Shown: one piece after another, positions 42,897 through 63,178 of the stretch
Position numbering within the stretch: position 1 is the first letter of the stretch
How the letters are laid out: each line of letters begins with the position of its first letter
Origin: an uncultured Candidatus Binatia bacterium
GTDB taxonomy: Bacteria; Desulfobacterota; Binatia; UBA9968; CAXXLF01
Assembly: GCA_965215595.1 (NCBI GenBank)
Contig: CBDCDW010000003.1
Location: 401,680 to 465,679, forward strand
Direction: 5' to 3'
DNA length: 64,000 nt
The notes under the pieces: generated by a model
Told to the model about the DNA's origin: nothing
Database searches by the model: none
Seen by the model: only the letters and a program-made list of their open reading frames with translations
Made by a program: the position numbers and the translations under genes

Positions 42897-44444
42897 ATGA
42901 AAAACCGCGAACGCGAAGCCGCATGGGACTATCATAATCATACCAAACATTCGGATTACAGCATACGCACCAACCCGCATTTCATGGACTGGGAAAACCA
43001 GCCAATCCCTTTCAAAATCTATTCCACGTTAGATGCGATTTCTATACCGCAGGACATTTCTTCATCTGGGATAGCTGCTCTGACCGCCATTTCTACCATT
43101 GGCCACAGGCAAAACGGACAGCCTGAAATTAATAAACAGATTCTGGCCGAAATCTTTCATTTCTCAGCCGGGATCACCAGACGCAAGACCTATCCAGGCG
43201 GAGAAGTTCTCTTCCGTGCTGCCGCTTGTACAGGGGCGCTCTATCACATTGATCTTTACCTGGTCGCAGGTGAACTATCCGATCTGGAAGCCGGGGTCTA
43301 TCATTTTAGTCCCAACGACTTTACCCTGAGAAAGCTCCGCTCCGGGGATTACCGGTCCGTTATTATAGCGGCTAGTGGTCAAGAGCCTTCGGTGGCCAGT
43401 GCGCCGGTGACGTTAGTCTGTGCTTCCACCTATTGGCGCAACGCGTGGAAATACCAGGCTCGGGCCTACCGTCATTGCTATTGGGACAGCGGTACGATAC
43501 TTGCCAACCTGTTGGCCGCCGCGGCGGCGCGCAGAGTTAGCTCCAGTGTGGTCATGGGTTTTGTGGATATCACCATTGCTGAACTCTTGGGTCTCGATCC
43601 TGAACGGGAGGGCGCACTGAGCCTTGTCCCCCTTGGATTCGATGCATCCACGCCGCCCGCTCCATCACCCGGGATAACGCCGCTTCATTTGGAGACCATG
43701 GCCCTATCCAAGCACGAAGTTGACTATCCGGCCATTCGAAAGATGCACACCGCGTCGTCTCTGGAGAGCGGGGAAGAAGTTGCCACCTGGCGCCAGCAGT
43801 CTTCCGGCGGCGATCCAGGGAAGAAAGAGGAAAAGGTCAGGGGACAGGTCATACCGCTACAACCTCATTCCCAGGAGGAGATGCCGGGAGATTCCATAGA
43901 GCAAGTCATACTTCGTCGTGGCTCCGCCCGGCAGTTTTCTAAGCAAAGCATTAGCTTTGCCCAACTCTCAACCATGCTCAAGATGGCCACGGCTCGCATC
44001 CCCGGGGATTGTTTCAATGGTGGTGCCCTCAACGACCTTTACCTTATCGTCAACGCAGTGGATGACTTAGCGCCTGGTGCCTATATCTTTCACCGGGAGG
44101 CCTCGGGCCTTGAACTGATAAAGGAGGGCAATTTCAGGCAGGAAGCGGGCCACCTGGGATTGGGTCAAGAGATTCCTGCTGATGCCAGCATCGATGTGTT
44201 TTTCCTGGCCGATCTAAATATAATCTTGGAACGGTTTGGAAACCGCGGTTATCGAGCGGCCCAGTTAGAAGCCAGCATTACCGGCGGAAGATTCTATCTG
44301 TCAGCCTATGCCCAACGCCTTGGGGCCTCCGGTCTTACCTTTTTCGATGACGACGTGACGGAGTTCTTTTCGCCCCACGCGGCTGGCAAGAGCGTAATGT
44401 TCTTGGTAGCAGTGGGAAAGGCCATGAGACGCATGCGGAAGTAG
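42897..44444 (+). CDS. SagB/ThcOx-family tandem nitroreductase-domain protein
   Basis: YHNHTKH, RAAACTGALY, WKYQARAYR, RRGSAR and GLTFFDD motifs. Confidence 0.88.
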   Translation: MKNREREAAWDYHNHTKHSDYSIRTNPHFMDWENQPIPFKIYSTLDAISIPQDISSSGIAALTAISTIGHRQNGQPEINKQILAEIFHFSAGITRRKTYPGGEVLFRAAACTGALYHIDLYLVAGELSDLEAGVYHFSPNDFTLRKLRSGDYRSVIIAASGQEPSVASAPVTLVCASTYWRNAWKYQARAYRHCYWDSGTILANLLAAAAARRVSSSVVMGFVDITIAELLGLDPEREGALSLVPLGFDASTPPAPSPGITPLHLETMALSKHEVDYPAIRKMHTASSLESGEEVATWRQQSSGGDPGKKEEKVRGQVIPLQPHSQEEMPGDSIEQVILRRGSARQFSKQSISFAQLSTMLKMATARIPGDCFNGGALNDLYLIVNAVDDLAPGAYIFHREASGLELIKEGNFRQEAGHLGLGQEIPADASIDVFFLADLNIILERFGNRGYRAAQLEASITGGRFYLSAYAQRLGASGLTFFDDDVTEFFSPHAAGKSVMFLVAVGKAMRRMRK

Positions 44445-44582
44445 GGATCAGCATCTTCTATCGGTTCCGACATTGCAAAGTCTATTGAGATCAACTCTCT
44501 TGCATTACCGGCTCTGATTCTGCAGCCGTCAGCCCTTCTGATTCTCCATGTGAGTGTGTCTGGTGCATTATACTTTTGAGAA

Positions 44583-45386
44583 ATGGAAGTACCTATGAAA
44601 AAGGTCCCAGCCCTGGAACTGCGAAACGTTTCTTATACCGTAGATAAGAAAAGAATCCTGGATTCCGTTGACTGGACAGTTCAACAGGGAGAGCACTGGG
44701 TGATTCTGGGGCCCAATGGATCGGGGAAAACCACGCTTCTCAAGGCTGCTTGCGGTTATATATGGCCAAATGACGGCGGTGAAATCTACCGCAATGGCGA
44801 AGTCTTGATCAATCTTCGGGATCTCAGAAAGAGCATTGGTTGGGTGACTTCCACACTGCCATTCGAAATACCTTCGCGCGAGAAAATCTTGAGCACAGTG
44901 GTATCTGGAAAGTTTGCTCAGATTGGACTCCTGGAAGGTCCTTGGGGAAGGTCCACAAAAAAGGATTACTCCCAGGCCGAGGAATATTTAGTTCAGATGG
45001 GTTGTGCCGATCTTTTGGATCAAGAGTTTGGCACCCTTTCCCAAGGGGAACAGCAAAGGGTTCTCATCGCCCGGGCGCGCATGACCAAACCTTATCTGAT
45101 ATTTCTCGATGAGCCCTGCGCCGGGATGGATCCGGGAGGAAGAGAAGATTTTCTAGAAAGTCTCCAAGAGCTTGGTAGTCAGAAACAGGTTCCGGCTCTT
45201 ATTTACGTTACCCACCACATCGAAGAAATCCTTCCTCTTTTTAAAAAAATGCTGATCTTGAAGAAGGGTAGGGTGCTTGAGGCCGGGACCACCAGCGCGC
45301 TCTTAAAACAAGATGTTTTAAGAAAACTATATTATGTTTCGTTGACTCTCACTAAAAAGAAGGGCCGCTATTGGCCCACGGGTTAG
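44583..45386 (+). CDS. Stand-alone ABC ATP-binding protein (ModF-like)
   Basis: GPNGSGKTT, LSQGEQQR, FLDEP and VTHH motifs. Confidence 0.92.
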   Translation: MEVPMKKVPALELRNVSYTVDKKRILDSVDWTVQQGEHWVILGPNGSGKTTLLKAACGYIWPNDGGEIYRNGEVLINLRDLRKSIGWVTSTLPFEIPSREKILSTVVSGKFAQIGLLEGPWGRSTKKDYSQAEEYLVQMGCADLLDQEFGTLSQGEQQRVLIARARMTKPYLIFLDEPCAGMDPGGREDFLESLQELGSQKQVPALIYVTHHIEEILPLFKKMLILKKGRVLEAGTTSALLKQDVLRKLYYVSLTLTKKKGRYWPTG

Positions 45387-45466
45387 TAGGAACCACCACA
45401 TTGGACCAGGGTCTGCATTACGTATCTAGTAAATTCACCAGTTTCTCGATGAAGGAAGTTGTGCCA

Positions 45467-45500
45467 AAGACGCAACCAAAGCGTCGATGAATTGCGTCCT
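45467..45500 (+). repeat. 34-bp palindromic site 1 (core GCGTCG)
   Basis: AAGACGCAACCAAA-GCGTCG-ATGAATTGCGTCCT. Confidence 0.85.
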
Positions 45501-45614
45501 GAGGCGGATCGGTTCTTTCGGTGCTCGGAGCAAGCCTACGGCGTCGCTCTTTGACACCCTTCAAGTTACTAATGAACTGAGTAATACGACGGCGGAGGCC
45601 ATTGGTGGCCAGGT

Positions 45615-46355
45615 TCAGTGGGCAATGAGCTCGCACTTTCCGTACTGAAGACCGCCCACACCGTCATCCTCAACTGATTTCAGGTCTGAAAAAATCTGCA
45701 GGTTAAATTGGGAGCCAAAGGCGTAATATTTTTTAATTTGCAAGTCCTGGTTAACCTCGACCCGGTCTACCTTGTAGCGTGTGCAATCGACCTTCCCGGC
45801 AAAGTGCGAGAACGCGCAGCGGAACAGGGAAAAACCGTCCGGAAGCTCTTTCAAACGCGTGGAGAACTGCCCCTCTTTGATTTCCTCGGAACTATAGGTG
45901 GTATCGAAGTCATACTTCCTTGTCACGGGGCAGCGATACTCCACGAGGGGGAGCCTCCCCTCTTCTGTTGGAGCTCCCGCCAGAATCCAACGGCGAATAA
46001 TCTCTTTTTCACTCGCGGGAAGGGGCTCTTCCGTTTCGGAAAACGGCATTATGTCATCCATCACTGTATTGAACAGTCCGGAATCTTCAGGTCTTCCTCG
46101 AACAATTTTCTCCGGATCAGCGCTTAGCTTTCCCAAATCAAGCACGAAGCCGAAGTCTCCCCTTGGACCCTTCTTCTCTCGTACCCCTTCGGGACCATGA
46201 CACTTTGCACACTTCGTCTCAAAGACTGTTTTCACTTCTTTCGCTAGTTTCGCCTTCTCCGGCTGAGAAAGCTTTTCCTGGCCCCCGACGGAGGAAACGA
46301 TTCCAAACGCCAAGAATATTCCGAAAAGGAGCCCACTCCTCGAATACAGATTCAT
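45615..46355 (-). CDS. Secreted c-type cytochrome domain protein
   Basis: Signal peptide; CAKCH; distal MP; RRWILAGAP. Confidence 0.8.
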   Translation of the reverse strand: MNLYSRSGLLFGIFLAFGIVSSVGGQEKLSQPEKAKLAKEVKTVFETKCAKCHGPEGVREKKGPRGDFGFVLDLGKLSADPEKIVRGRPEDSGLFNTVMDDIMPFSETEEPLPASEKEIIRRWILAGAPTEEGRLPLVEYRCPVTRKYDFDTTYSSEEIKEGQFSTRLKELPDGFSLFRCAFSHFAGKVDCTRYKVDRVEVNQDLQIKKYYAFGSQFNLQIFSDLKSVEDDGVGGLQYGKCELIAH

Positions 46356-46368
46356 ATCCTTAAAAACG

Positions 46369-47502
46369 CTATTTCCTCTTTCGAGCCGCTTTGCCCGAGT
46401 CGGCTCTCGCTTTAGCGACGAGTTTTTTAAGGCCGCTCACGTCCCTGTATTTGAACAGGTTGGCAATCATATACTTGCCCCCCGGTTTGGCGACGGTAAA
46501 CTTATCGGTGATCATGTCCTTGGAAATATCCATGCGCATGGAGTTACGGTCCGCATTCTTCTGCCATGCTAATTGCCCCTCTTTGGATATCATCCAATTT
46601 GCGAAAACTGTGGCTGCATTGGGATTAGGGGCGCGGTTCACCACGGCGAGCTGCCCCCAACCGCCGGAGAGATACGCCTCGGAGGTGGGTGCACGATAGA
46701 TTTCAACGGGTAAACCCTGTCTTTTGGCAGTCGCTACCTCAGTGCCCCTGGCTGCAATGTTCAGTTCATACTTTCCCGAGGCGACCCAGTCGATCATCTG
46801 CACGATGCTTCTCCCTATGGTGATTTCCTGCTCGGCGAACAATCGCTGGATGAATTTTGGTCCCATGTTCTTGTTGTAGTAGATGCCCTTCCAGGTGGCC
46901 AGCACGCCTCGCCTCGTTGGATCATAGGACACCATCTTGCCGCGCCATTTGGGATCGAGAAGGTCCTTGAAGCTCTTAAGCTCACCGGGCTTGTGCTTCT
47001 TGGTGTTATAGAGTGCGATGGTGGACGTGACGGTCCCTTCCATAAGAAAGAGGGACTTTTGGGGAACCGCATAATGATGCTGCTTCCTGAACCAGGCGGA
47101 CTGGTCCTTGGATTCTGGTAAGATTAACCGGGGTGGAAGCGGGTCAAAGTACCCCCTTTGGGCTAAGATGCCGCCAGTTCCTGCGCCTCCAACATAAATG
47201 TCCGCAATAAATTTTCCCGCCCGACGTTCGGCGCCGAGCCGGTTGGCATGTTGGCTTCCCGAACCGGGAACGTAGACCATCTTGATTTTGGGATAGACGC
47301 CTTTAAACGTCTCAAGGGCGTTAATGTACTGGATTCCCGGGGGGCCATAGACCCTGATACGCCCCTCTTTTCGTGCCGCAGCCAGGGTTTTTTCCCAGTC
47401 GGCCTTCCAATCCGCTTGTGCGGGTTGGTAAAAAGTCATCAGAAAAAGACATAAAAGCGTACAAAATGTGAAGAAAAGTCTCAGACGATAAACCATATTC
47501 AT
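46369..47502 (-). CDS. ABC substrate-binding protein (AfuA-like), no adjacent permease
   Basis: WEKTLAAARKEG, DLLDPKWRGK and APNPNAATVF motifs. Confidence 0.88.
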   Translation of the reverse strand: MNMVYRLRLFFTFCTLLCLFLMTFYQPAQADWKADWEKTLAAARKEGRIRVYGPPGIQYINALETFKGVYPKIKMVYVPGSGSQHANRLGAERRAGKFIADIYVGGAGTGGILAQRGYFDPLPPRLILPESKDQSAWFRKQHHYAVPQKSLFLMEGTVTSTIALYNTKKHKPGELKSFKDLLDPKWRGKMVSYDPTRRGVLATWKGIYYNKNMGPKFIQRLFAEQEITIGRSIVQMIDWVASGKYELNIAARGTEVATAKRQGLPVEIYRAPTSEAYLSGGWGQLAVVNRAPNPNAATVFANWMISKEGQLAWQKNADRNSMRMDISKDMITDKFTVAKPGGKYMIANLFKYRDVSGLKKLVAKARADSGKAARKRK

Positions 47503-47693
47503 TGCCTCCTAGATAATAGGATTTTTGAGAACCCGAGCAGTCTATTTGGAATAGGCGCCACTGTCAAATCGCAAAATACTGACCATGCCTTATGAGCTCG
47601 CAATATGCGGGTTCGATTGAAGATCAAGGCAGGACCAGATCAAATAGACCATGGTGATTTAACCAGTGGAACAACCCAAGATGCATTCTACTT

Positions 47694-47727
47694 ATTAGGC
47701 AATTAATGCGTCGTTTAATTGGATTCT
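47694..47727 (+). repeat. 34-bp palindromic site 2 (core GCGTCG)
   Basis: ATTAGGCAATTAAT-GCGTCG-TTTAATTGGATTCT. Confidence 0.8.
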
Positions 47728-47794
47728 GGGATGATTGACAGCCTTTTCCCCTGCGATATTGGTCTCTTAGTATCAAGCCAATTGAGTACCGAGT

Positions 47795-47911
47795 ATGGAA
47801 CGCAAACTCACTGCCATTCTTAGTGCGGATGTCGAAGGTTACAGTCGTCTGATGGGGAAGGATGAGGAAGCGACCATTCGCACCTTGGCTCCGCGCGGGG
47901 GAGGAGATTAG
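47795..47911 (+). pseudogene. N-terminal fragment of a class III adenylate/guanylate cyclase
   Basis: Translates as MERKLTAILSADVEGYSRLMGKDEEATIRTL, then unrelated residues and a stop; too short for the ORF track. Confidence 0.85.
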
Positions 47912-48060
47912 GCAAACTCACTTTCGTTAGGTGAGCAGAGGTTATAGAGATTCAAGCCAGCTTCAACGTATAGAGAGGATAAAATCAGAGTTGGGTCAAG
48001 ATTTTGTCAACGATTCGTGTATGATTCAGGTTGAAGTGTTCGAGTGCCAACCAAGTGGTT

Positions 48061-48366
48061 TCATTTCTTAAATACGCTAAAAAATTTCCCCAGTGCACCT
48101 TTGTCCATTTCAGACACAACCTCCAGTTCTCCGGCATCCAGCCATACACCTCCGCAGGAAGAACATTTATCCACAGCGATTCTCTTATAATCAATTTGAA
48201 TTAACTGCATTCCGCATTTGGGGCAGCGCATATAATGAAGTTCCTTGAGCTTCCTTTTGTCTTCCTCCACGAACTGTGCTTGTTTGTCTGCTTCCCGCTT
48301 TTTTCTTCTTTCAAATTCTACCTTGGCAAAATATTCTTCTTCCGTTTCGGTTGGCTTTCCAGGCAT
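48061..48366 (-). CDS. Zinc-ribbon (zf-TFIIB-like) protein
   Basis: EEEYF, CPKCG and CSSCGGVWLDAGEL motifs. Confidence 0.85.
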   Translation of the reverse strand: MPGKPTETEEEYFAKVEFERRKKREADKQAQFVEEDKRKLKELHYMRCPKCGMQLIQIDYKRIAVDKCSSCGGVWLDAGELEVVSEMDKGALGKFFSVFKK

Positions 48367-48775
48367 ACCCTATTCCTTTCTTCTGTCGGTTAGCAAAGGT
48401 CCATTGTGTCTTTGTGAAGCATTCTTACTTCGATGCGTTAAGCACTCTCATTGCGGTGATACCGCTACATATATAAAACCAATGTGTTGGAGTCAATGGG
48501 AGTGACCCCCATCAGTTAGTCAGTCAGGGGAGGGGTAAAAGTTAGAGCGCTCTAGGTGGGACAGAGTTGAGTTCGTTTTACGATTTGTTTACGATTGAAG
48601 TGTAGCCGGCCAGCGTCGATCTTTCGTACGACCAGCTAATTGAAAACCCTCATTACTCTAAGGGGTAGAAGATGTCCAGGTCCCCCCTGCAGTGCTCCAC
48701 ATCGGGCCGCCGTTTTCGTTTCAGGAAAGCATGCAGTAGGCCAATCGAAAGAGGAGTTTGAGTCGGGAAACGTCT

Positions 48776-49552
48776 TCAGTTGATTTCAAAGTCAAAATAG
48801 CGATTGGGAAATGGCTCGCCCCTTAAAGCGTAGTGCCACCATTCCTCTGGCAAATTTGTAAATCCGTACTTTTCCATAATCAATTTAAGGAGCAATCTGT
48901 TTACTTTTTGAATCCTCCCGATCTCTGGGTTGAGAGTATGTGATAGTGGGTGAAAACAGTCGTAAGCCGTTCCCATATCCAAGCTGTTGTCTTTGAAGCG
49001 CGTCTCATAGGGAAGATAACATTCAACCAATCCCTTCCTATCCTCGTAACCTGGTTGTTCAGGGAAAGGTAAGGGGACTATGGTGAGGTCAACCGTGCTT
49101 CCTCGGCTATGGCTGGATTTTTCAGCTATATACCCTTCCCTAAATAGGTCTCTCTTGGCTACAGTCGGATAAAACTCCTTCTTCATTCGGGTATCGGACA
49201 AATCTTTTGCCCACTCGACAAAGTCGCCAACCGCTCTTTGCGGTCGGTAGCAGTCGTAGATCTTGAGAGACAGCGAAAAGGCTCTTAGTTCTGCCTGCAC
49301 CGCAGCGAGGGCTTCTGCAGCCTGCCTTGTGATAATACATTTTGGAGCGTTGTATCCCCTGATTCTGTGACCGACAAAGTTGTAATTGCTGTAGTACCGG
49401 GCCTCAACAATGATGCTGGAATCAACATCTTGAAGCGAAACAAAAGTTTTCTTGAAGTCTTTTTCGTCTTCTGCAACTTCAGCGAGCGTGTGATGACTGA
49501 TTGCAAAACAAAAAAGCAAAACAAAAGCTCCACTAAAGGCAAGGAATTTCAT
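48776..49552 (-). CDS. ddpX: D-alanyl-D-alanine dipeptidase (VanX/DdpX, peptidase M15D), secreted
   Basis: YDCYRPQRAV, SSHSRGSTVD and EWWH motifs. Confidence 0.9.
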   Translation of the reverse strand: MKFLAFSGAFVLLFCFAISHHTLAEVAEDEKDFKKTFVSLQDVDSSIIVEARYYSNYNFVGHRIRGYNAPKCIITRQAAEALAAVQAELRAFSLSLKIYDCYRPQRAVGDFVEWAKDLSDTRMKKEFYPTVAKRDLFREGYIAEKSSHSRGSTVDLTIVPLPFPEQPGYEDRKGLVECYLPYETRFKDNSLDMGTAYDCFHPLSHTLNPEIGRIQKVNRLLLKLIMEKYGFTNLPEEWWHYALRGEPFPNRYFDFEIN

Positions 49553-49597
49553 GACGTCTCCTTATCGCTGAGGTCGTTCTGTGTCAAGGAACCTGTC

Positions 49598-49631
49598 AGG
49601 ACTCAATTAAAGCGTCGATTAATTGCGTCCT
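49598..49631 (+). repeat. 34-bp palindromic site 3 (core GCGTCG)
   Basis: AGGACTCAATTAAA-GCGTCG-ATTAATTGCGTCCT. Confidence 0.92.
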
Positions 49632-49721
49632 GGGGAGGATCAGTTCTCTTCGTGCTCAGAAAAAGCCTACCGCCTAGCCCTTTAGACACCCGCTCATCTC
49701 AATGTCTAACAATATAGGCAC
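49632..49721 (+). repeat. About 90-bp flank repeat following some palindromic sites (also 54336-54426 and, degenerate, about 45501-45570)
   Basis: Shared AGTTCTCTTCGTGCTCAGAAAAAGCCT..CGCCTAG...GACACCC...AATGTCTA-N6-TAGGCAC. Confidence 0.85.
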
Positions 49722-49938
49722 ATAGCTCATTTCTGGTATATACCTTCTCTGAGTTGGGCCTTCAATTATTCCTTAAATTTCAATGCACCAGCTGCTTTGC
49801 TGGTGGCTCAACCAAACACATCCATCTGGTTGGCCTGAGCCATGCTCTGTAAGCATTGTCGGACAAAATAGCCTCCCACATCGATGGTAAGTGTACAAAT
49901 TCTGACGTGAAGCCCCAATGTTCCAACGGAGGGTAAAA

Positions 49939-50823
49939 ATGGACAAATCATATGCATTATTTCTTCTTATATTCACTCTAGGCGCGATTGTAGTTCGTGC
50001 TTTAGCGTGGATTGTAGTTCTTATAAGTGAAAGGAGCAAAAAAGAAACTGCTGAGGTGAAGCTTAACATTCTGATTCGGTTGTCGAGGGACAATTCCATA
50101 AGGGAAGACGAAGATTTTGCGCAGTGGAATAGTACTTGCACACGAAGCGCGGAATTGTCATGGGAAGCCAAAACCTATTGTGCACTAACTGTTGTGAAGG
50201 ATTTCACTGAGGAAGGTCTTAAAGAAAAGGATTATACTGTTATGAAGTGGTGCCTTGATTTCGTACGGCCTGACAGATTTCACATCACGCAGGAGATGTG
50301 GGACCGCGAGCTTGGAGACCTTTATGATCAATGGGTGACCATCGGATAAGATAATTATCAGAATTTCGGATTATAGACTCACGATGAGGACGGGAAGCAT
50401 GACGGAATCAGCCAGGGACTTTTAGTCAATAAATATTTGGGAATTATTCGAAATCAAAACCCTGAGCGCTACAGCGCACACAGGTATTTAGGGGAGCGTT
50501 TTCTTCTTTTAGAGTACGATCCCCTTGCGTTGCCTGAGGAGCATGCGGGAATCAGTGACCTCTGCAAAGAAGTTCAGCAAAGCAAAGGTGAATTCTATAT
50601 CTGGATTAATGTAGATACAGGCTTTCTTGCGAAGGCTCAAGTTAAAGTTCAAGGTAGGAGCAAAGAAGGAGAACGGGTCGATATGGAGCTAAATTCTGTG
50701 TTTAGCTGCTATAATGAGAAAATAATTGTAGAACCACTTCCTTGGCTCAATGCAGTCTCGGATTCGGGCGGTGACAAAAAGATTGTAAATACCAAGGTAC
50801 CGATCCTACCTCATCATGAATAA
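49939..50823 (+). pseudogene. Membrane-anchored hypothetical protein interrupted by two in-frame stops
   Basis: ORFs 49918-50349 and 50437-50823 share a frame, separated by TAA at 50347 and TAG at 50374. Confidence 0.7.
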
Positions 50824-50897
50824 CGGAAAGTGAATTATGACTAACCGTTTGTCGTTCCGAAACAAAAACTAAATCCGCGCTCATAAACAGGTAGGGA

Positions 50898-52079
50898 ATG
50901 AAAAAGGTTCGCTACTTTCTATCATCGTCCATAATTGTCCTAACTTTTATAGCTGTTGTCGCGTTCTTTGGCATTGTTCCAGGCGTGGTTACAAAACGGA
51001 TGAATCCAGTAGCTTCTCAGCCACCTTATAACGCCTCTGAGCTAGCCACCAAGTTTCATCAGAAGTTGTTCATCGTCGATCTTCATGCCGATTCCCTGCT
51101 CTGGAATCGTGACCTTTTGGACTACGGAATCTATGGCCATGTAGATATTCCGCGCCTGCTGAAAGCCAATGTGGCGCTACAGATTTTCACTGTGGTGACA
51201 AAAGTTCCGCGGGGCCGAAGAATCGACGGTGGTACCTCTAGTGATACCCTCGACCTAATCACGCTGCTGTCACTAAGCCAGCGCTGGCCAGTGTCAACCT
51301 GGACGAGTCTAAGGGAGAGAGCCCTATACCAATCGCGCAGACTACGAGAGACAGCGGGCCGGTCCAACGGGAGGCTGGTACTCGTTAAGTCAAGTAAGGA
51401 TGTCAGACGATTCATGGAGAAACGAAGGGACAATTCAAACATGCTTGGGGGCCTTCTCGGAATTGAGGGTGCACACTCCCTTGAGGGCAAACTGGAAAAC
51501 GTGGATGTCCTATTTGATGCAGGTTTCCGAATGATGGGACTCACACATCATTTTGACAACGAACTGGGTTGCTCAGCTCATGGTAAGCGACGGTGTGGGC
51601 TGTCTCAATTCGGGAAACAGGTCATTCAGCGCATGGAAGAACTTAACATGATAGTTGATCTAGCCCACGGCTCTCATGCTCTTATCGAGGACGTTCTCGA
51701 CCTGGCCACGCGTCCAATTCTAGTTTCCCATTCAGGCGTACGGGGCACGTGCGACAACCAGCGAAATCTGCGCGATGAACAGATTCGCCGTATTGCCCAA
51801 TCTGGAGGCGTCATCGGAATTGGTTACTGGGAAAAGGCTGTTTGTGGCACCGACGCCAGATCCATAACGAAAGCGATGAGGTATACCGCTGACCTTGTTG
51901 GGGTGGACCACGTTGCGCTTGGATCGGACTTTGATGGTGCAGTCCGGGCTGCTTTCGACACCACGGGGATTGTACTAATCACGGAGGCGTTAATGGAACA
52001 AGCTTTTACAGAAATCGAAATCCGTAAGATCATGGGTGAAAATGTGCTTAGGGTTCTGAAAGAGTCGTTACCCAATTGA
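50898..52079 (+). CDS. Membrane dipeptidase (peptidase M19)
   Basis: DLHAD, GIEGAH, DLAH, SHSG and LGSDFDG motifs. Confidence 0.92.
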   Translation: MKKVRYFLSSSIIVLTFIAVVAFFGIVPGVVTKRMNPVASQPPYNASELATKFHQKLFIVDLHADSLLWNRDLLDYGIYGHVDIPRLLKANVALQIFTVVTKVPRGRRIDGGTSSDTLDLITLLSLSQRWPVSTWTSLRERALYQSRRLRETAGRSNGRLVLVKSSKDVRRFMEKRRDNSNMLGGLLGIEGAHSLEGKLENVDVLFDAGFRMMGLTHHFDNELGCSAHGKRRCGLSQFGKQVIQRMEELNMIVDLAHGSHALIEDVLDLATRPILVSHSGVRGTCDNQRNLRDEQIRRIAQSGGVIGIGYWEKAVCGTDARSITKAMRYTADLVGVDHVALGSDFDGAVRAAFDTTGIVLITEALMEQAFTEIEIRKIMGENVLRVLKESLPN

Positions 52080-52083
52080 GGCC

Positions 52084-52117
52084 AGGACGCAATTCATTAG
52101 CTCATTAATTGAGTCTT
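52084..52117 (+). repeat. 34-bp palindromic site 4 (core TAGCTC)
   Basis: AGGACGCAATTCAT-TAGCTC-ATTAATTGAGTCTT, starting 4 bp after a stop codon. Confidence 0.88.
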
Positions 52118-52121
52118 ACGT

Positions 52122-52155
52122 GAAACGTAATTAATGCGTCGTTGAATTGCGTCTT
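52122..52155 (+). repeat. 34-bp palindromic site 5 (core GCGTCG), tandem with site 4
   Basis: GAAACGTAATTAAT-GCGTCG-TTGAATTGCGTCTT. Confidence 0.88.
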
Positions 52156-52160
52156 GGAAC

Positions 52161-52205
52161 AATTGACAACCCTTTCCCCTGTGATATTGGTCTCTGAGTC
52201 AAGCC
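52161..52205 (+). repeat. Promoter-like flank repeat (also 47734-47779 and 54939-54975)
   Basis: ATTGACA(A/G)CC(C/T)TTT..CC.G(T/C)GATATTGGT shared by three loci. Confidence 0.8.
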
Positions 52206-52292
52206 CCATTAGTCAAGAGCCTCCCCCATCATTGATCAGGCTTCCGAAGCATTGTGAGGCCTCACAGAGAGATAGAGATTTGGAGGTCAGGT

Positions 52293-52733
52293 ATGTCTAC
52301 AAAAGTCCTTTTTGTATGTTTTGCAAATATGGAAAGAAGCCAGGTAGCCCGTGCGTGTTTTGATCAGCTCTCGCAGCATGACTCGGATAGTGCTGGCATT
52401 GGGGTGGACGAGAATATAGCAAGGCGGAATCCTCTGAGCAGGAAACTCAAAGACAACGGCACGGACGGAAGGCAAGTTGAGTACATCAGGAAGGCGTTTG
52501 GAGTGGATATCTCCGATAGGGAAAGGCAGCAACTGTCCCCTGAAATGGTCCATGCAGCCGACCTGGTCATTCTCATCGTGGAGAAGGACAAATGGCCTGA
52601 TTACCTTCAGGAGGGAGGATAAATAGTTTTCTGGGACATTCCAGATGCGTATAGACAAGATGATGGTTTCGCCGCCGACGTGTTTAGACAGGTACACAAT
52701 CGTGTTGAACATTTGGTCAAAGAGATAGGCTGA
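52293..52733 (+). pseudogene. LMW protein-tyrosine phosphatase / ArsC-like gene with an internal stop
   Basis: VLFVCFANMERSQ P-loop; TAA at 52620 followed in frame by IVFWDIPDAY...LVKEIG. Confidence 0.85.
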
Positions 52734-52765
52734 ACTGATAAAATTGATTAAACAGCCTATCTGCC

Positions 52766-52799
52766 CAGACTCAATTAAAGCGTCGTTTAATTGCATCCT
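52766..52799 (+). repeat. 34-bp palindromic site 6 (core GCGTCG)
   Basis: CAGACTCAATTAAA-GCGTCG-TTTAATTGCATCCT. Confidence 0.9.
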
Positions 52800-52946
52800 G
52801 CGTGAAATGATGCTTCTCGGGACTAAATAACTCTGCTGTTTAGCCTTATTGACATGGCATTTGGACTTTGATACGCGGGTAAGTTAAGAACTAAGAGATA
52901 GCCTCCCCCAGCCTTCAGTCTAAATTAAAGTGTTGGGAGGGAACAT

Positions 52947-53327
52947 ATGCCAGATAATTCCGAAGCGACACCGAGGTTGGGGTGGTTGGCGGGGACAGGT
53001 ACCATTCTGTCGATTGTTGCTTGCTACGGCACACTTGCGACAGTCGGATTGTTGTCGTTGCTGGGCGTCACCTTGGTCATCAACTCAACCGTGTGGGCGA
53101 GTACAATCAGCCTCTTTGCACTACTGGCTGTCGTGGGTGTGTTGGTGAGCTATCGTCGCCACCACATGGTGGCTCCACCAGTCATCGCCATAATTGGGGC
53201 AGCTTTAATTATTTGGGCGATGTTTGTCTCCTTCAACCGTGTCATTGAACTGACAGGATTTGCAGGACTACTGGTAGCGGCAATCTGGGACTGGCGTGCG
53301 AAGAAATGCGAGATTACTACAAGATAA
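52947..53327 (+). CDS. MerC-like four-helix membrane protein
   Basis: Four hydrophobic segments, Cys in TM1 (SIVACYG), SYRRHH loop; GGAGG RBS. Confidence 0.65.
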   Translation: MPDNSEATPRLGWLAGTGTILSIVACYGTLATVGLLSLLGVTLVINSTVWASTISLFALLAVVGVLVSYRRHHMVAPPVIAIIGAALIIWAMFVSFNRVIELTGFAGLLVAAIWDWRAKKCEITTR

Positions 53328-53380
53328 AGGACGAAATAACCACCAAAAGCATCGGTTGCTTCGTTAATTGAGTTCTCCAC

Positions 53381-53414
53381 CAAACGCAATGAATGCGTCG
53401 TTTAATTGCGTCCT
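53381..53414 (+). repeat. 34-bp palindromic site 7 (core GCGTCG), preceded by a half-site at 53363-53376
   Basis: GTTAATTGAGTTCT-N4-CAAACGCAATGAAT-GCGTCG-TTTAATTGCGTCCT. Confidence 0.88.
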
Positions 53415-53509
53415 GTATCTTCTGGTGGGTATATACCCTAGCCTGTGTATTCGCCTTATTCTTCATCTACGGGATGAATGGTCCTGAAATGACGTTCCTA
53501 TTGGCTTGC

Positions 53510-54091
53510 CTACTTCCCTTGTGGCGGGTCAACTTCAAGATGCCTGACATCGTTGAGCGACACGATGGACCAGCGGTCATCGTTCCAGACCAATTCGTTG
53601 AAGGCGATCCGCTTCCCTTCGTACACACGCTTGTCGGTGGTTTGCTCGATCACGTAGTCGAGGAACATGTGCGTCGCGCCACTATGTGAAACAACAAACA
53701 CGCGGCCACCAGGGTTCCCTTTGGTGATCTCGCCCATCACTTCGATCATCCGTGCTTGCACGTCGTTCCATGTCTCGAAGGCCCGCGGATACGGCAATAG
53801 CGGAAATTCGCTATTGTTGACCACCCTCCGGAAGCGTTTCTCACGTAACCTCATGTCTGTTTGAATACTCAGACCCTTTGCAGCGGCCAAAGGTTCGGCG
53901 GTTTCGATTGCTCTTCGGAGATCACTAGTGTAAATGGCCGTGATCTGCTCATCAGCCAAACGATTACACAGTGCCAGGGACATCTGCTGCCCATTCTCGT
54001 TAAGCGGCGTATCTATGTGTCCTTGGGCCCTGCCCTCAACGTTCCATTGCGTCTGACCGTGCGTTGTTAGGATAATTGAGCAAACAGGCAT
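53510..54091 (-). CDS. Histidine phosphatase (phosphoglycerate mutase) family protein
   Basis: THGQT.WN (RHG variant), SDLRRAIETA, LRE and VVSHSG motifs. Confidence 0.88.
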   Translation of the reverse strand: MPVCSIILTTHGQTQWNVEGRAQGHIDTPLNENGQQMSLALCNRLADEQITAIYTSDLRRAIETAEPLAAAKGLSIQTDMRLREKRFRRVVNNSEFPLLPYPRAFETWNDVQARMIEVMGEITKGNPGGRVFVVSHSGATHMFLDYVIEQTTDKRVYEGKRIAFNELVWNDDRWSIVSLNDVRHLEVDPPQGK

Positions 54092-54301
54092 GGGGTCTAA
54101 CTATTAAATGAGCTACGACGAGGATGCCAATTCTCGCGGCCTATCCTACAATGGGAAGCAGCCGATCGGAGCGTATCCGACAACGTGCAATTATGTCAAC
54201 TTGGAGTGAGCTGCTGCCATATGATCTCCAAGAAGCAGCTAAATGGCTTCTATGACAGCGGCAGTCAATACCAGGCCGCGGTTTTCATTGCCAGTGGCTG
54301 T

Positions 54302-54335
54302 AGGACTCAATTAATGCGTCGTTTAATTGCGTCTT
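54302..54335 (+). repeat. 34-bp palindromic site 8 (core GCGTCG)
   Basis: AGGACTCAATTAAT-GCGTCG-TTTAATTGCGTCTT. Confidence 0.92.
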
Positions 54336-54521
54336 GAGGTGGAATAGTTCTCTTCGTGCTCAGAAAAAGCCTCCCGCCTAGTTCCTTTGACACCCTGCCT
54401 ATCCTAATGTCTAGCCACTTAGGCACTAGACCCGGCTAGGCCGTTCTGTGCTCCCAGCATAAACCTAATTTTCCTATTCTATCTTAAGTAGTTAGCTGGA
54501 ATCTCGTATCCAGCAACCTTT

Positions 54522-54538
54522 TTGGCATATCCGTTGCT
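54522..54538 (+). promoter_or_regulatory. Sigma-54 (-24/-12) promoter
   Basis: TTGGCATATCCGTTGCT matches TGGCA-N6-TTGCW, 35 bp before the ATG at 54574. Confidence 0.7.
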
Positions 54539-54573
54539 CTACTTAGAGCTAAAGAAGAAAGGAGGGTCAGATA

Positions 54574-54912
54574 ATGAAAATTGGTCATCCGTCTAAGTTG
54601 AGAGTTCTAATGATAGCCCTGATCTTCGGGTCGGTGATGGTACTAGGACAAACCCAGCGAGCTGATGCCTACGCCGGGGGTGGTGAGGCAGGTTTGTTAA
54701 TGCTCTATGTACTATTTCTCTCCACAGCCAGTGTGGTTTGCGCCCCCGTGGCGGCTGTATCAAGCGCTGCATCGGACAAAGAGTTCGACGAGGCGTATGG
54801 GAACTGCTTCTTGCCTGTGTTGTGGTTGGGCGAACCCATCCCGGCGGAAGACGATGAGGATCTTCCTGAACCAACACCAACTCTCGTGGATGAGTATGAG
54901 GACGAAGAATAG
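54574..54912 (+). CDS. Small exported or membrane hypothetical protein with an acidic tail
   Basis: AGGAGG RBS, signal peptide and one further hydrophobic segment. Confidence 0.65.
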   Translation: MKIGHPSKLRVLMIALIFGSVMVLGQTQRADAYAGGGEAGLLMLYVLFLSTASVVCAPVAAVSSAASDKEFDEAYGNCFLPVLWLGEPIPAEDDEDLPEPTPTLVDEYEDEE

Positions 54913-55084
54913 TGTGGGCCGCCGTTTTCCATTTCAGGAATTGACAACCCTTTTTCCCGTGATATTGGTGCCTTGAAAGGATCTTCCCCTAGAATTGATT
55001 AGTATTCCCAGTAAAGTGACGCTAACGGAGGGACCCAAAGCGTTCCTGATAGAGATGTGCTGGATTCTAAAGAGGAGACCTTGA

Positions 55085-56441
55085 ATGAAAAAATATTACA
55101 CCAATTGCACGGTGTTTATCGCTGCCTTGATTTTGACCGGATGTGCGACTTTTGAACCTGGCTTACGTTACCAGGATCTGACCAGGCCGCGCCAGCCCGA
55201 TGTGAAAAGCGTGCAGGATGGTTTGGAGGTCTCGGTTGAAGAGTTTGCCTCCGAGAGCAAGGCCAAAATGGCCTTCGATGCTGATGTTGCCTCCTATGGC
55301 ATCCTGCCACTGCTGGTTCGTGTGGACAACTCTGGGTCTCAGAATTATACGGTGCTTAGGAGTGACATCAAAGTCTATCTGGGGGGTCAACTGCTATCGC
55401 CCATCATGAGTAACGAGGCTGCTAAAGAAGCGGGCACAAGAGAATATGCTGGAAAGGCGCTCGGCTGGACTGTGGCAACGGGACCGTTTTTTATTTTCTT
55501 ATGGCCTGCCACGATTGCTGGATCTGCTGCCCATACTCAGTCGGTCAACAAGAGGATAGTGCAACATTTTGAAAACCTTGCCTTCAATGATGCACGTCTG
55601 AAGCCAAAAGCAGACGGCCGCAGGGTTTGTTTACTTTAAGCTTCCGGAAGGAGTGGAAAAACTGAAGAACCTGACTGTGGAAGTTCAACCATCTGAGGAC
55701 AAAACCGGAAAGCGACTAACGTATAAACTTAATGTAAAGGGTTTATCTGTAGAGACTGGCGCAGCGGGCGCGGGAACAGCTACGACAGCCCAAACCCCAG
55801 AGGCGGCCATTGCCCCCAAAGTCGAACAAGGAAGCGGTCAGCCATCTCAAAAACTGGAGACTGCTTATGCCATCACACCGCCTGATTATAAAGTTGATTG
55901 GTCTTTGGTCAAAGAGCCTGTTTACAAAGATGGAGATTGGTGGAAGGTGAAGATGGAGAGCAAAGGCGTAGTCGGAGGGAGGTGCCGTTATGACTACTCT
56001 GATTACCTCCTGGAAATACAGGAAGGTAAGCCAAAGCTATATGGCATTGATGGCACGAACAAAGAAGAATTCGATTGCCCTGAGGTAGAGAACGAGATTC
56101 TGGGTAAGATAAAAAGGAAACTTAAATTTCCATTACACGTAGGTAATCGTTGGGCTCATCGTTACCTTTGGGAAGGACGATTTAGAGAGCGTTGGGTAAC
56201 AGTAGAATACAAAGTTCTGGGGCGGCAAAAGGTACAGACTCCAAAGGGGGAGTTTGAAGCATTTAAGTTAAGTAGTCGCGCGGTATGGCGGACCTCATCT
56301 GCCTACCATGAGCGTACAGAAAACTACTATTATTGCCCAAAGGTCAAAGCGATTATCCTGCACAAATTTATCTGGCTGGAAACAGAACAGTATAGGGCTG
56401 ACTCAACCGTCACTGTTGTGGACTTCAATGTGAGCCATTAA
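55085..56441 (+). pseudogene. Lipoprotein gene split by a 1-bp frameshift near 55610
   Basis: Lipobox LTGC; removing one base at CCAAAAG gives LKPKQTAAGFVYFKLPEG, in frame with ORF 55653-56441. Confidence 0.75.
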
Positions 56442-56471
56442 ACTCCCGTTAGTCGCAGGGCGAACGATTTC

Positions 56472-56504
56472 AGAGACGGCGTTCTACACCAGGTCGCCGT
56501 TTTC
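56472..56504 (+). terminator. Hairpin downstream of the lipoprotein gene
   Basis: AGAGACGGCG ... CGCCGTTTTCT followed by T-rich bases. Confidence 0.4.
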
Positions 56505-56531
56505 TTTCTAGTAAACTGTGCGTAACCGGCC

Positions 56532-56565
56532 AAGACGCATTTAAATAGCTCATTAATTGCGTCCT
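56532..56565 (+). repeat. 34-bp palindromic site 9 (core TAGCTC)
   Basis: AAGACGCATTTAAA-TAGCTC-ATTAATTGCGTCCT. Confidence 0.88.
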
Positions 56566-56954
56566 GGCGGTCCAACGCTGAGAAAACCCACGCCCAGAGA
56601 GGCTTTGGAGGCAATAAGGAATGGCAAATTTCACATCTATCCCACCCGGGTTTAAACGTCTTAAATAACTACGCACGAAATATGCATGAACCAATGCGAA
56701 GATGGGCAATCTAAGTCCAAATTGGGAAACCTCGGGCGTTCCATTTCACGCTTTGTACCAGTAATTTCGTTGATTAAATTAGTCTTTTCCTCCGGTTTCC
56801 ACCTGCATGACATGGCCCACGTACAAGTGATAAGAGTAGCAATATTTTTGCCAGGGAGGTTTCCTATGATTGGGCGGTTTTTAATTATTTTCGGTCAGTT
56901 CCTTATAAGTAAGGATGAACAATCGTTGGAGTGGCAAGATATCTTGCCTATGGA

Positions 56955-60644
<3,690 letters not shown>

Positions 60645-61732: not shown

Positions 61733-63178
61733 CGTGTTAAGCCATCAAAAAATCTAACCCTAGCGGGATTCGTTGCGTCATTACAAAATCTAACCGAAGT
61801 CGTCTCGCATCTGTCGTTTCATGTCCTGTTGTTGGCGCTGTAGTTTCTTGCTGAAGGTCCAGTTTCTCCACGGCGTTTGTTTCAGCGGTGGTCTCTCTCG
61901 TGGGGCTCTGTCTGCATGGCTGGCCAGCTTGTAGATCCGCTGCAGTTGCTGATCGATTCGGGTAGAGAGCTCGAAGGGATCAGTTGTCTTAAGCGTGTGC
62001 TTGAGGGCTGCCAGCTTTTTGGGGTCTCCCTTTCGGGACTCCACGACCCGTTCGAACGGGGTACGAGGCGTGTCATAGCGGCGAATAAGTCGAGAGCCTA
62101 TACGGATCTTGCATCGCAGCTTCATGGAGGGCTGGAACAGATTCTGGAAGATCCTAAGCTCATCATAGAGCTGGTTGGCGGCCTCTTGGGCCTTTGCGGT
62201 GTCGTAGCGATCCCAGCCCATAAGCTTTCTGACATGGGTCCAGTTTTTCTGCTCGATGTGCGCGTTGTCATCTTTTTTGTAGGGACGCGAGCGGGTGAAC
62301 TGAATGGTGTGGCCAGCTGGGCGTTGTTGACAGAAGGCAAGAAGGCGGTTGTTGATAAACTCACTGCCGTTGTCGGAGTCGATCCCCTTGAGGGGAAAAG
62401 GAAGCTGGTGTTCGATCTCGGTGACCGCATTCAAGACACCCAAAGCGCTCTTACCCATGACGGCCTTGCGCTCTACCCAGCAGGTAGCAATGTCGACACA
62501 GTCCAGACTATGGACAAACTCCCCAACCGCTGAGGCCCCTGAGTGTGACACCAGGTCAATCTCCAGATAGCCCGGCCGGTTCACATCCCAGTGATCGGTC
62601 TTAATCGGGATCATCTGCTTTAGTAGCGATCCGGGCCGAGTGGTGCCATAGAGTCGGCGTTTCACGATGTGCTTGGTTTCCCTCAGGCGCCGATCCATCT
62701 GACGGGCGCTGATGGCCAGGAGCTGATCCTCTAACGGTTGGGTCAGCTCGAAGTGTTGCCTTATCCAGGGCAACCAGTGTACAAGGGCGGCCTTCAGACG
62801 TTGGGAGCACAGATACCCCGAGGCCTCCCACACCTTTGCCAAAATCCTTACCATTGCCCGATTGTATGTAGGAGAGCGAGGTGCACCCCGTTTGCGTACA
62901 GTTGCCTCGGGCAAGGGCCGGTTTAAAAGCCAGATGGCATATTTGCGGTTGTAGCCGCAAACCTTGCAGAATTCCTCTAGCATCGTTCCCTTCTGTGCCC
63001 GTGGTGCGTGCTGATAACGATCATAGATGGATCGTAAATACTCCTGCTTGGATCGTCGTGCCATGGTGAACCCTTCCATTGTTGCCCTCCTTGAGCTCTA
63101 ATGTGAGCCCTTGGAGGGTTAGAATCACAAATGGCGCAACGTATCGCCCTTGGGTTAGATTATATATGGCGCAATACG
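61733..63178 (-). mobile_element. 1446-bp DDE insertion sequence, copy 2
   Basis: Nearly identical to 8701-10146; 4-bp TSD CTCT. Confidence 0.95.
61790..63079 (-). CDS. Integrase-core DDE transposase
   Basis: Same protein as 8749-10047 except that a SNP gives a stop three codons earlier. Confidence 0.93.
   Translation of the reverse strand: MEGFTMARRSKQEYLRSIYDRYQHAPRAQKGTMLEEFCKVCGYNRKYAIWLLNRPLPEATVRKRGAPRSPTYNRAMVRILAKVWEASGYLCSQRLKAALVHWLPWIRQHFELTQPLEDQLLAISARQMDRRLRETKHIVKRRLYGTTRPGSLLKQMIPIKTDHWDVNRPGYLEIDLVSHSGASAVGEFVHSLDCVDIATCWVERKAVMGKSALGVLNAVTEIEHQLPFPLKGIDSDNGSEFINNRLLAFCQQRPAGHTIQFTRSRPYKKDDNAHIEQKNWTHVRKLMGWDRYDTAKAQEAANQLYDELRIFQNLFQPSMKLRCKIRIGSRLIRRYDTPRTPFERVVESRKGDPKKLAALKHTLKTTDPFELSTRIDQQLQRIYKLASHADRAPRERPPLKQTPWRNWTFSKKLQRQQQDMKRQMRDDFG

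Follow-up and report, generated by a model that had tools for sequence, protein, structure and literature searches.

Arrays of 34-bp palindromic sites in a Candidatus Binatia genome, most likely the joints of exchangeable gene cassettes handled by an Xer-like recombinase

Integrons are the textbook form of gene-cassette storage, and their attC sites act as folded, imperfect hairpins of at least 55 bp in which outer and inner boxes pair and the outer 3′ box is the point of exchange. In Cre/loxP-type systems, the identity of the spacer decides which sites are compatible. A narrower, plasmid-bound parallel to integrons is provided by the dif modules of Acinetobacter, whose pdif sites are 28 bp long and alternate in orientation; to our knowledge, most of these modules contain no recombinase gene of their own. 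They have been described as gene modules that are bounded by Xer-type sites with a 6-bp centre and shuffled between replicons, the sites being dif-like and attributed to the host XerC/XerD pair (PMC6449649, PMC13141974, PMC7399989). Here we analyze a stretch of 64,000 nucleotides from an uncultured Candidatus Binatia bacterium (assembly GCA_965215595.1, contig CBDCDW010000003.1, positions 401,680 to 465,679), referred to below as the window and corresponding to C3:401680-465679 of the genome G000 (6.0 Mb, 7 contigs). Nine 34-bp sites punctuate a gene array at window positions 45467 to 56565. They are most likely the joints of swappable cassettes handled by an Xer-like recombinase, a form of gene capture separate from integrons. 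Full-text literature searches, with supplementary files and subscription journals outside their coverage, found no description of such a system.

A preliminary description of the window, made from the sequence alone, had listed nine copies of a 34-bp repeat. All nine were recovered, every one on the + strand, and a position-weight scan blind to the core added no further copy in the window, in agreement with that description. Eight of the nine 34-mers fit the pattern CAATTAAW-N6-WTTAATTG with at most two mismatches, against a chance expectation of 0.08; a count of eight was reached in none of 100 shuffles. Seven copies, at 45467..45500, 47694..47727, 49598..49631, 52122..52155, 52766..52799, 53381..53414 and 54302..54335, share the core GCGTCG in the same orientation, as had been claimed, and were named type A. 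The remaining two, at 52084..52117 and 56532..56565, had been described as copies of the same repeat, but they are not drifted versions of it: both have a fixed second core, TAGCTC, and were named type B. A rarer type C, with the core TTCTCC, occurs on a second type of arm. The first A site (45467, score 32.3) has a degenerate left arm and an intact core and right arm, and across G000 the first sites of arrays score below internal sites on both arms (p = 0.03 and 0.002). Sites 52084 and 52122 are the two halves of a fixed B-A doublet, 38 bp from start to start; in G000, this B-to-A distance of exactly 38 bp occurs 20 times, and one of 36 bp occurs twice. The layout, two inverted 14-bp arms around an asymmetric and invariant 6-bp core, is that of the core-type sites of tyrosine recombinases, and the likeness to lox, FRT and dif that had been proposed is borne out. 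The repeat length of 34 bp also stands, although many copies extend further, with promoter-like modules after A sites and a tail of ~100 bp after the terminal B site.

The same architecture recurs throughout the genome. A position-weight matrix built from the arms only, and blind to the core, gave 167 matches in G000 at a score of at least 14 and none in the reversed sequence that served as control. An exact A or B core was present in 136 of 178 arm-defined matches (score at least 10), and the core is therefore constrained as strongly as the arms. Altogether 166 sites were classified, 114 of type A and 52 of type B, with 157 of them outside the window. Twenty-eight clusters hold 160 of these sites; 25 clusters have a single orientation and 23 have a B site at their end. 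The profile scan suggested in the preliminary description thus returned clustered, co-oriented arrays, not scattered copies. Their grammar is an A site, a cassette, another A site and so on, closing with a B site and the conserved tail. Neighbouring sites are separated by a median of 1,376 bp, and these distances add up to 211,935 bp, ~3.5% of the genome. Only one of the 166 sites lies inside an open reading frame (ORF) of at least 150 aa, though such ORFs span 80% of the genome. Another 8 sites of G000 combine the TTCTCC core with type-2 arms (control 0), and four of these directly precede a B or A site. The same arms with different cores (A and B, with C on the second arm type) may act as non-interchangeable addresses, partner choice being core-specific, and the fixed grammar, with A within arrays and B plus tail at unit ends, would follow from this. 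The A pattern on type-1 arms was present in all five genomes of family f1 and in none of 36 sampled genomes of families f2 and f3. Public site-bearing contigs carry the titles of Candidatus Binatia or "Deltaproteobacteria bacterium" metagenome-assembled genomes (MAGs), with a few short contigs binned to other phyla, and a search of viral contigs for the exact A site gave no match.

When compared to G001, a genome of the same genus, the whole array of the window appears as an insertion (45387..56925, + strand, ends approximate to ~20 bp). An ABC-transporter gene and metH are 26 bp apart in G001 and 11,568 bp apart in the window, and their flanks are 86-87% identical. In the place of another array, C5:615673-622687 with its tail, G001 carries an antitoxin/toxin-like pair of 660 bp. 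One A-B unit with a single cassette is kept in both genomes, and G001 otherwise has only a few one-gene A-gene-B units. Two more comparisons between G000 and G001, at loci within larger G000-specific regions, gave no clean junctions. The G001 pair (C1:1025820-1026487, locus L107) comprises a ribbon-helix-helix antitoxin-like gene and a RelE/ParE toxin-like gene, as judged by eye from the translation. Its position is intergenic between convergent genes and variable in both genomes.

The same cassettes were also found in different arrays. Those at C4:517631 and C7:1596666 are 97% identical from site to site, and those at C7:1068905 and C7:1137836 are 94% identical. At the upstream boundaries of these two pairs, 5 and 4 of the 14 left-arm positions differ, respectively, and the core, the right arm and the downstream DNA are identical. 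Among 16 partly non-independent pairs of sites that are homologous only downstream (at least 90%), left arms had 3.9 mismatches on average and right arms 2.25 (Wilcoxon p = 0.01). Because left arms diverge while the core, right arm and downstream DNA match, we place the exchange at the core, as in lox, FRT and dif. The left arm would then move with the upstream cassette and the right arm with the downstream cassette. The preliminary description had proposed looking for breakpoints in the core, and such breakpoints exist: homology breaks at site cores, and synteny breaks at the ends of arrays. Cassettes 91-95% identical to those of G000 are present on contigs of other MAGs and of metagenomes. 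In one sediment run, the summed contig depth on site-containing bins was thousands-fold, which suggests that the sites may be abundant in that run. An 8-kb stretch shared by C5 and C6 was discarded as evidence of mobility, as it is a near-identical duplicate at a contig start.

In G000, no serine recombinase was found, and the locations of its 13 tyrosine-recombinase and 32 Y1-transposase matches do not follow those of the arrays. Phage-type integrases were considered as partners and set aside: they are not near arrays in G000, and one homologue, found at a distance of 4-5 kb from a site on 2 of the 58 contigs that have sites, was judged to be background. The sister genome G004, however, carries an Xer-like recombinase gene (at least 315 aa) that starts 120 bp after a B site and whose product shows 36% and 31% identity to the host's two Xer proteins. 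A search of metagenome contigs with this protein alone returned 15 loci, 12 of which contain A or B sites. All six loci that include the gene start (five of the 15 and locus L126 of G004) have a B site in + orientation or an inverted A site 98-120 bp upstream. The interval between site and start codon is a conserved leader, in which a predicted hairpin would mask the ribosome-binding site. At four of eight gene ends an A site with a characteristic left arm follows 35-71 nt past the stop codon, and two more have a half site; at locus L149, the gene is followed by the array A, A, B-A, B-A. In these relatives, the gene itself would travel at array heads, flanked by a B (or inverted A) site on one side and an A site on the other. 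The protein aligns with E. coli XerD (E = 1e-40), which by sequence is its closest solved structure, and has the catalytic motifs. It remains under all NCBIfam cut-offs, with scores of 189 against 335 for XerC, 187 against 330 for XerD and 59 against 265 for the integron integrase. Metagenomes contain at least 244 clusters of relatives, whose names, if any, are only "XerC" or "XerD". The preliminary description had advised looking for a recombinase beside the copies. A tyrosine recombinase with catalytic motifs does adjoin sites in G004 and in metagenomes, and in f2 with a site type of its own, but not in G000 itself.

In family f2, the recombinase was found in four genomes and is 56-68% identical to that of G004. 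The A/B pattern was not found around these four loci, where a single match with 3 mismatches is at chance level. Upstream of the f2 genes there is instead a left arm ATTGAAYTGAA with the core TTCTCC (5 of 6 copies). Directly after the stop codon, the core GCGTCG (CCGTCG once) is joined to the right arm TTCAGTTCAAT in 4 of 6 copies, the other two being broken. As a palindrome, ATTGAAYTGAA-N6-TTCARTTCAAT with the core GCGTCG or TTCTCC is present in 32 of 90 f2 genomes (one flagged unpublished) and in none of 28 f3 genomes, and the control gave 0 matches. Recombinase and sites are therefore linked in two diverged lineages. Because the sites that flank the gene differ in their arms between f1 and f2, the arm type changes with the recombinase, and the 14-6-14 design and one core persist. 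We consider it probable that A and B are double-stranded core-type sites of a dedicated Xer-family tyrosine recombinase and that the segments between them are its cassettes. A single Xer-type enzyme would recognize the two inverted 14-bp arms around the 6-bp asymmetric overlap and catalyze exchange in or at the core, presumably by way of circular intermediates.

An explanation in which the palindromes act as hairpins predicts paired arms. At every variable arm pair of 110 distinct A sites, the Watson-Crick counts equal the expectation for independence (53 vs 53.6, 44 vs 47.2, 51 vs 49.4 and 63 vs 62.8), and 52 B sites likewise lack arm covariation. Since Watson-Crick combinations match independence, there is no selection for arm pairing. 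This favours a pair of half sites bound by protein on duplex DNA over repetitive extragenic palindromic (REP) elements, terminators or attC-type sites that fold. It is thus hardly credible that the sites are terminators, or hairpin repeats akin to REP elements or miniature inverted-repeat transposable elements spread by a Y1 transposase, be it IS200-type or a REP-associated tyrosine transposase (RAYT). G000 does have 32 Y1_Tnp matches, one Y1_Tnp-DnaA_C gene lies within an array, and an IS200-type copy is inserted at one B site; yet 30 of the 32 Y1 genes are more than 6 kb from any site, the would-be loops are invariant, no T-run follows the palindrome, and a scan of window positions 44000-58000 against Rfam (E ≤ 1) gave zero matches. 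A scattered REP family with an associated RAYT had been named beforehand as the finding that would speak against gene capture. The copies are clustered and co-oriented, their cores are invariant and they show no general association with RAYT or Y1 genes. Another hairpin-based explanation takes the arrays for integron arrays without an integrase (clusters of attC sites lacking integron-integrases, CALINs), in which A and B would be unusually short attC sites for IntI. It draws on an intI gene of G000 disrupted by an insertion sequence (IS) and on two C-terminal intI fragments, one of them fused to a truncated B core beside an array, and on the frequency of intI in the sister family f2 (10 of 18 genomes, E ≤ 1e-30). 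It nevertheless appears quite improbable. Exchange maps to the centre of the palindrome and not to an outer box, no conserved flanking boxes were found beyond 34-36 bp of a site that also lacks arm covariation, and the cassettes have promoter-like modules of their own and mixed orientation. The intI loci scanned in G000 (C4), G002 and f2 contain no A or B site, and the exact A pattern occurs in 0 of 18 sampled f2 genomes, 10 of which have intI matches. No integrase above threshold adjoins an array, the only contact being one 41-residue fragment; paired boxes with outer exchange, which we take to define attC, were not found, and the breakpoint lies between left arm and core. As A and B sites are missing beside the scanned intI loci, intI was dropped as the cognate enzyme, and this absence together with the central exchange point leads us to read the intI remnants as a separate, co-resident system.

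Two further explanations accept a site on duplex DNA. The host XerC and XerD could act on the sites, by the same chemistry, with the cassette-borne Xer-like gene as a passenger or helper. All five f1 genomes have XerC-like and XerD-like genes, most site-bearing genomes have no dedicated recombinase, and the identity between the dedicated enzyme and the host's Xer proteins is 31-36%. The near-symmetric 14-mer arms, however, suit one protein and not a XerC/XerD pair, the arms change together with the dedicated recombinase between f1 and f2, and sites are found at none of the eight XerC/XerD loci of G004's family. In addition, C7:395892, a predicted candidate for the chromosomal dif as the sole exact match to a generic dif pattern, is unlike A and B in both arms and core. 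Action by the host pair is therefore considered unlikely. Alternatively, the sites could be operators or insulators for a dimeric regulator upstream of stereotyped promoters, and the arrays ordinary genomic islands. The hexamer TTGACA occurs within 40 nt downstream of 48 of 114 A sites, as compared to upstream of 1 of 114, and the missing arm covariation fits a protein-binding site on double-stranded DNA. The promoter module is missing at more than half of the A sites, though, and an operator would leave unexplained the A...B grammar, the co-orientation regardless of gene direction, the breakpoints at the core, the insertion polymorphism and the linkage to a recombinase. We regard the operator explanation as decidedly improbable. 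On balance, a non-integron gene-capture array built on sites of the lox/dif style, as initially proposed, is supported: scattering, variable loops, an associated RAYT and a lack of breakpoints, any of which would have counted against it, were not observed.

Several elements related to these alternatives deserve a separate description. An IS200-type element at C4:525696-526350 (Y1 transposase at 525804-526166, with a GC-rich hairpin of its own) lies inside a terminal B site and splits this site from its tail. At ~12 loci of G000 (e.g. C7:1761975-1762304, L065:6367-7338), multicopy genes of ~320 aa fuse a Y1 transposase to a DnaA C-terminal helix-turn-helix; one of them is inside an A...B unit. 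The intI gene at C4:148772-151187 is split by an IS3-type insertion and a frameshift into pieces that score 233, 70 and 124 bits with TIGR02249; it is 61 kb from the nearest site, and no cassette array is evident there. At C7:1723770-1723937 (L079:7770-7938), a B site is truncated precisely at the left boundary of its core, where it joins the final ~41 codons of intI; the fusion lies directly upstream of a small array, at 50 bp from its first A site and in divergent orientation. This fusion looks like the outcome of a deletion or of an illegitimate exchange that ended at the core. Finally, a dif-like motif within a longer repeat occurs in four copies, at C5:579500, C5:584348, C7:612520 and C7:616443.

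The assignment of the sites to a dedicated Xer-like enzyme has to be weighed against a number of observations. The 16 pairs homologous only downstream are not fully independent, as the duplicated C5/C6 region is included, and the converse comparison, in which the left arm should go with the upstream cassette, comprised only 4 pairs and was weak (2.5 vs 3.0 mismatches). The contig-level data of four runs showed only assembly breaks and mosaic joints at sites, and neither a recombination product nor a circle or an empty site was seen. Contig breaks at sites are expected for repeats, and the joints listed for one sediment run had sides of 20-28 nt; they were counted neither for nor against excision. 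The empty locus of G001 has no A or B site, and the first arrival of an array is therefore not explained by simple site-by-site integration. Two of the eight recombinase gene ends lack a downstream site, and the direction of ORFs relative to the sites is mixed (61 with and 36 opposed, by crude ORF calling). Neither G000 nor G001, G002 or G003 has the recombinase, and an order-wide search found it in only 5 of 123 genomes, the sites being far more widespread; a class-wide protein search had missed it (0 of 301).

As to this genome, the recombinase gene was not found in the seven contigs of G000, but a 49-nt fossil that is 90% identical to the 3′ end of the gene lies on C6, ~500 bp ahead of the A site that opens the largest array, one of 11 sites. 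Judging from these sequences, the gene has most likely been lost from G000, and since it is lost the arrays are probably relics and frozen at present, or dependent on an incoming enzyme. The preliminary description had called the array serviced in trans. This is correct insofar as the array encodes no recombinase, but it may in fact mean that the array is currently orphaned, with only the 49-nt remnant left.

The cassettes themselves are diverse. For 93 ORFs from 17 array-covering stretches, 93 different Pfam families were counted, and the commonest, ABC_sub_bind, was seen only four times. Many cassettes would begin with a promoter-like module behind the site, continue with one to three genes and frequently close with an intrinsic terminator ahead of the following site. 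The best-conserved module after A sites is TTGACA-N16-TATTGG with a TG one base ahead of the -10 hexamer, and in many cassettes a terminator-like hairpin with a T-run directly precedes the next site. Because of this promoter-like module after the site and the terminator-like end, many cassettes resemble self-contained transcription units. In at least 8 cassettes (e.g. C6:7800-8030, C7:1256000-1256200 and C6:581290-581520), a module of ~230 bp with nested TGTAGC/GCTACA inverted repeats follows the A site; it may be the operator region of a small regulator.

In the window, cassette 1 (45615..47502, - strand) follows the first A site and contains a weak cytochrome c-like ORF, under the Pfam cut-off, and a solute-binding protein. 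The A site at 47694 is followed by the TTGACA-N16-TATTGG module at ~47735-47790 and by cassette 2 (48061..49552, -), with a Zn-ribbon protein, a D-Ala-D-Ala dipeptidase (M15) and an intrinsic-terminator-like stretch on the + strand at ~48696-48725. A conserved module of ~100 bp after the A site at 49598 is common to the sites at 45467 and 54302; cassette 3 (50437..52079, +) comprises an ORF without assigned function and a membrane dipeptidase (M19). Behind the B-A doublet, a TTGACA promoter-like module lies downstream of the A site at 52122, and cassette 4 (52254..52622, +) contains a low-molecular-weight phosphatase-like ORF. Cassette 5 (52947..53327, +) encodes a MerC-family membrane protein and cassette 6 (53510..54091, -) a histidine phosphatase. 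Three ORFs with no Pfam match make up cassette 7 (54574..56441, +). The terminal B site is followed by the conserved tail (56566..56670, +; hidden Markov model (HMM) match at C3:458245-458346, E 3.5e-14), and from there unique sequence continues to ~56925. In G000, the HMM of the tail has 40 matches, 27 of them directly behind a B site; in other MAGs and metagenomes, the tail sequence forms a 78-nt linker from a B site to the next A site. A degenerate half A site was sought at the far ends of tails, with nothing convincing except after C7:1071434. The tail was also considered as a structured RNA and rejected, the alifold energies being -2.9 and -5.9 with hardly any covariation. Two short, unrelated dispersed repeats were noted besides. 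One of 168 bp, at window positions 61733-61900, matches four places in G002 at 100% identity and five in G001 at 84%. The other, of 146 bp (L096:8145-8290), has at least 15 copies in G001.

In a wider sense, these arrays could represent a second cassette-capture system, in an uncultured order of Candidatus Binatia and evolved independently of integrons: an Xer-derived recombinase with 34-bp duplex sites, arms that co-evolve with the recombinase (two types in two families), cores as an address code that separates single cassettes from multi-cassette units, self-expressed cassettes, and dozens of arrays that make up ~3.5% of the genome. For this complete picture, we see the chances as evenly divided. 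If true, it would add a third route of gene-cassette storage to integrons and dif modules, via ordinary double-stranded sites and an Xer-type enzyme, in an uncultured, sediment-dwelling lineage. If confirmed, cassette capture would have evolved more than once from the machinery for chromosome-dimer resolution, and genome engineering would profit from a naturally occurring panel of 34-bp sites, some compatible and others not, together with the recombinases that belong to them. With ~212 kb between sites in G000, the system may also account for part of the 1.5-Mb size difference between the two genomes of the same genus.

Among known systems, integrons share the arrays of diverse accessory-gene cassettes with co-oriented sites, an enzyme of the Xer/IntI branch at array heads (here in relatives) and the occurrence of many arrays without a nearby recombinase. 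They differ in that the present sites are 34-bp, double-stranded 14-6-14 palindromes with central exchange, and the recombinase reaches only 59 bits against the cut-off of 265 on the integron-integrase model; many cassettes here come with a promoter-like module and a terminator of their own, genes point in both directions, the two or three classes of core obey a grammar, and one chromosome carries 28 arrays. REP elements, and bacterial interspersed mosaic elements, with their RAYT are likewise short intergenic palindromes in more than 100 copies, but here the centres are invariant, the arms do not covary, the arrays are co-oriented and there is no linkage to RAYT. With Cre/loxP and with XerH, XerS and XerA and their dif sites, the proposed system has in common a single tyrosine recombinase, two inverted arms, a short asymmetric spacer and a 34-bp site; those systems, however, use one site per replicon for the resolution of dimers or plasmid multimers, whereas here 166 sites are organized in cassette arrays. 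The dif modules of Acinetobacter come close as gene modules bounded by Xer-type sites with a 6-bp centre, and differ from the arrays described here, in which the sites are 34 bp long, near-symmetric, in direct orientation, unlike the candidate dif and linked to an Xer paralogue of their own.

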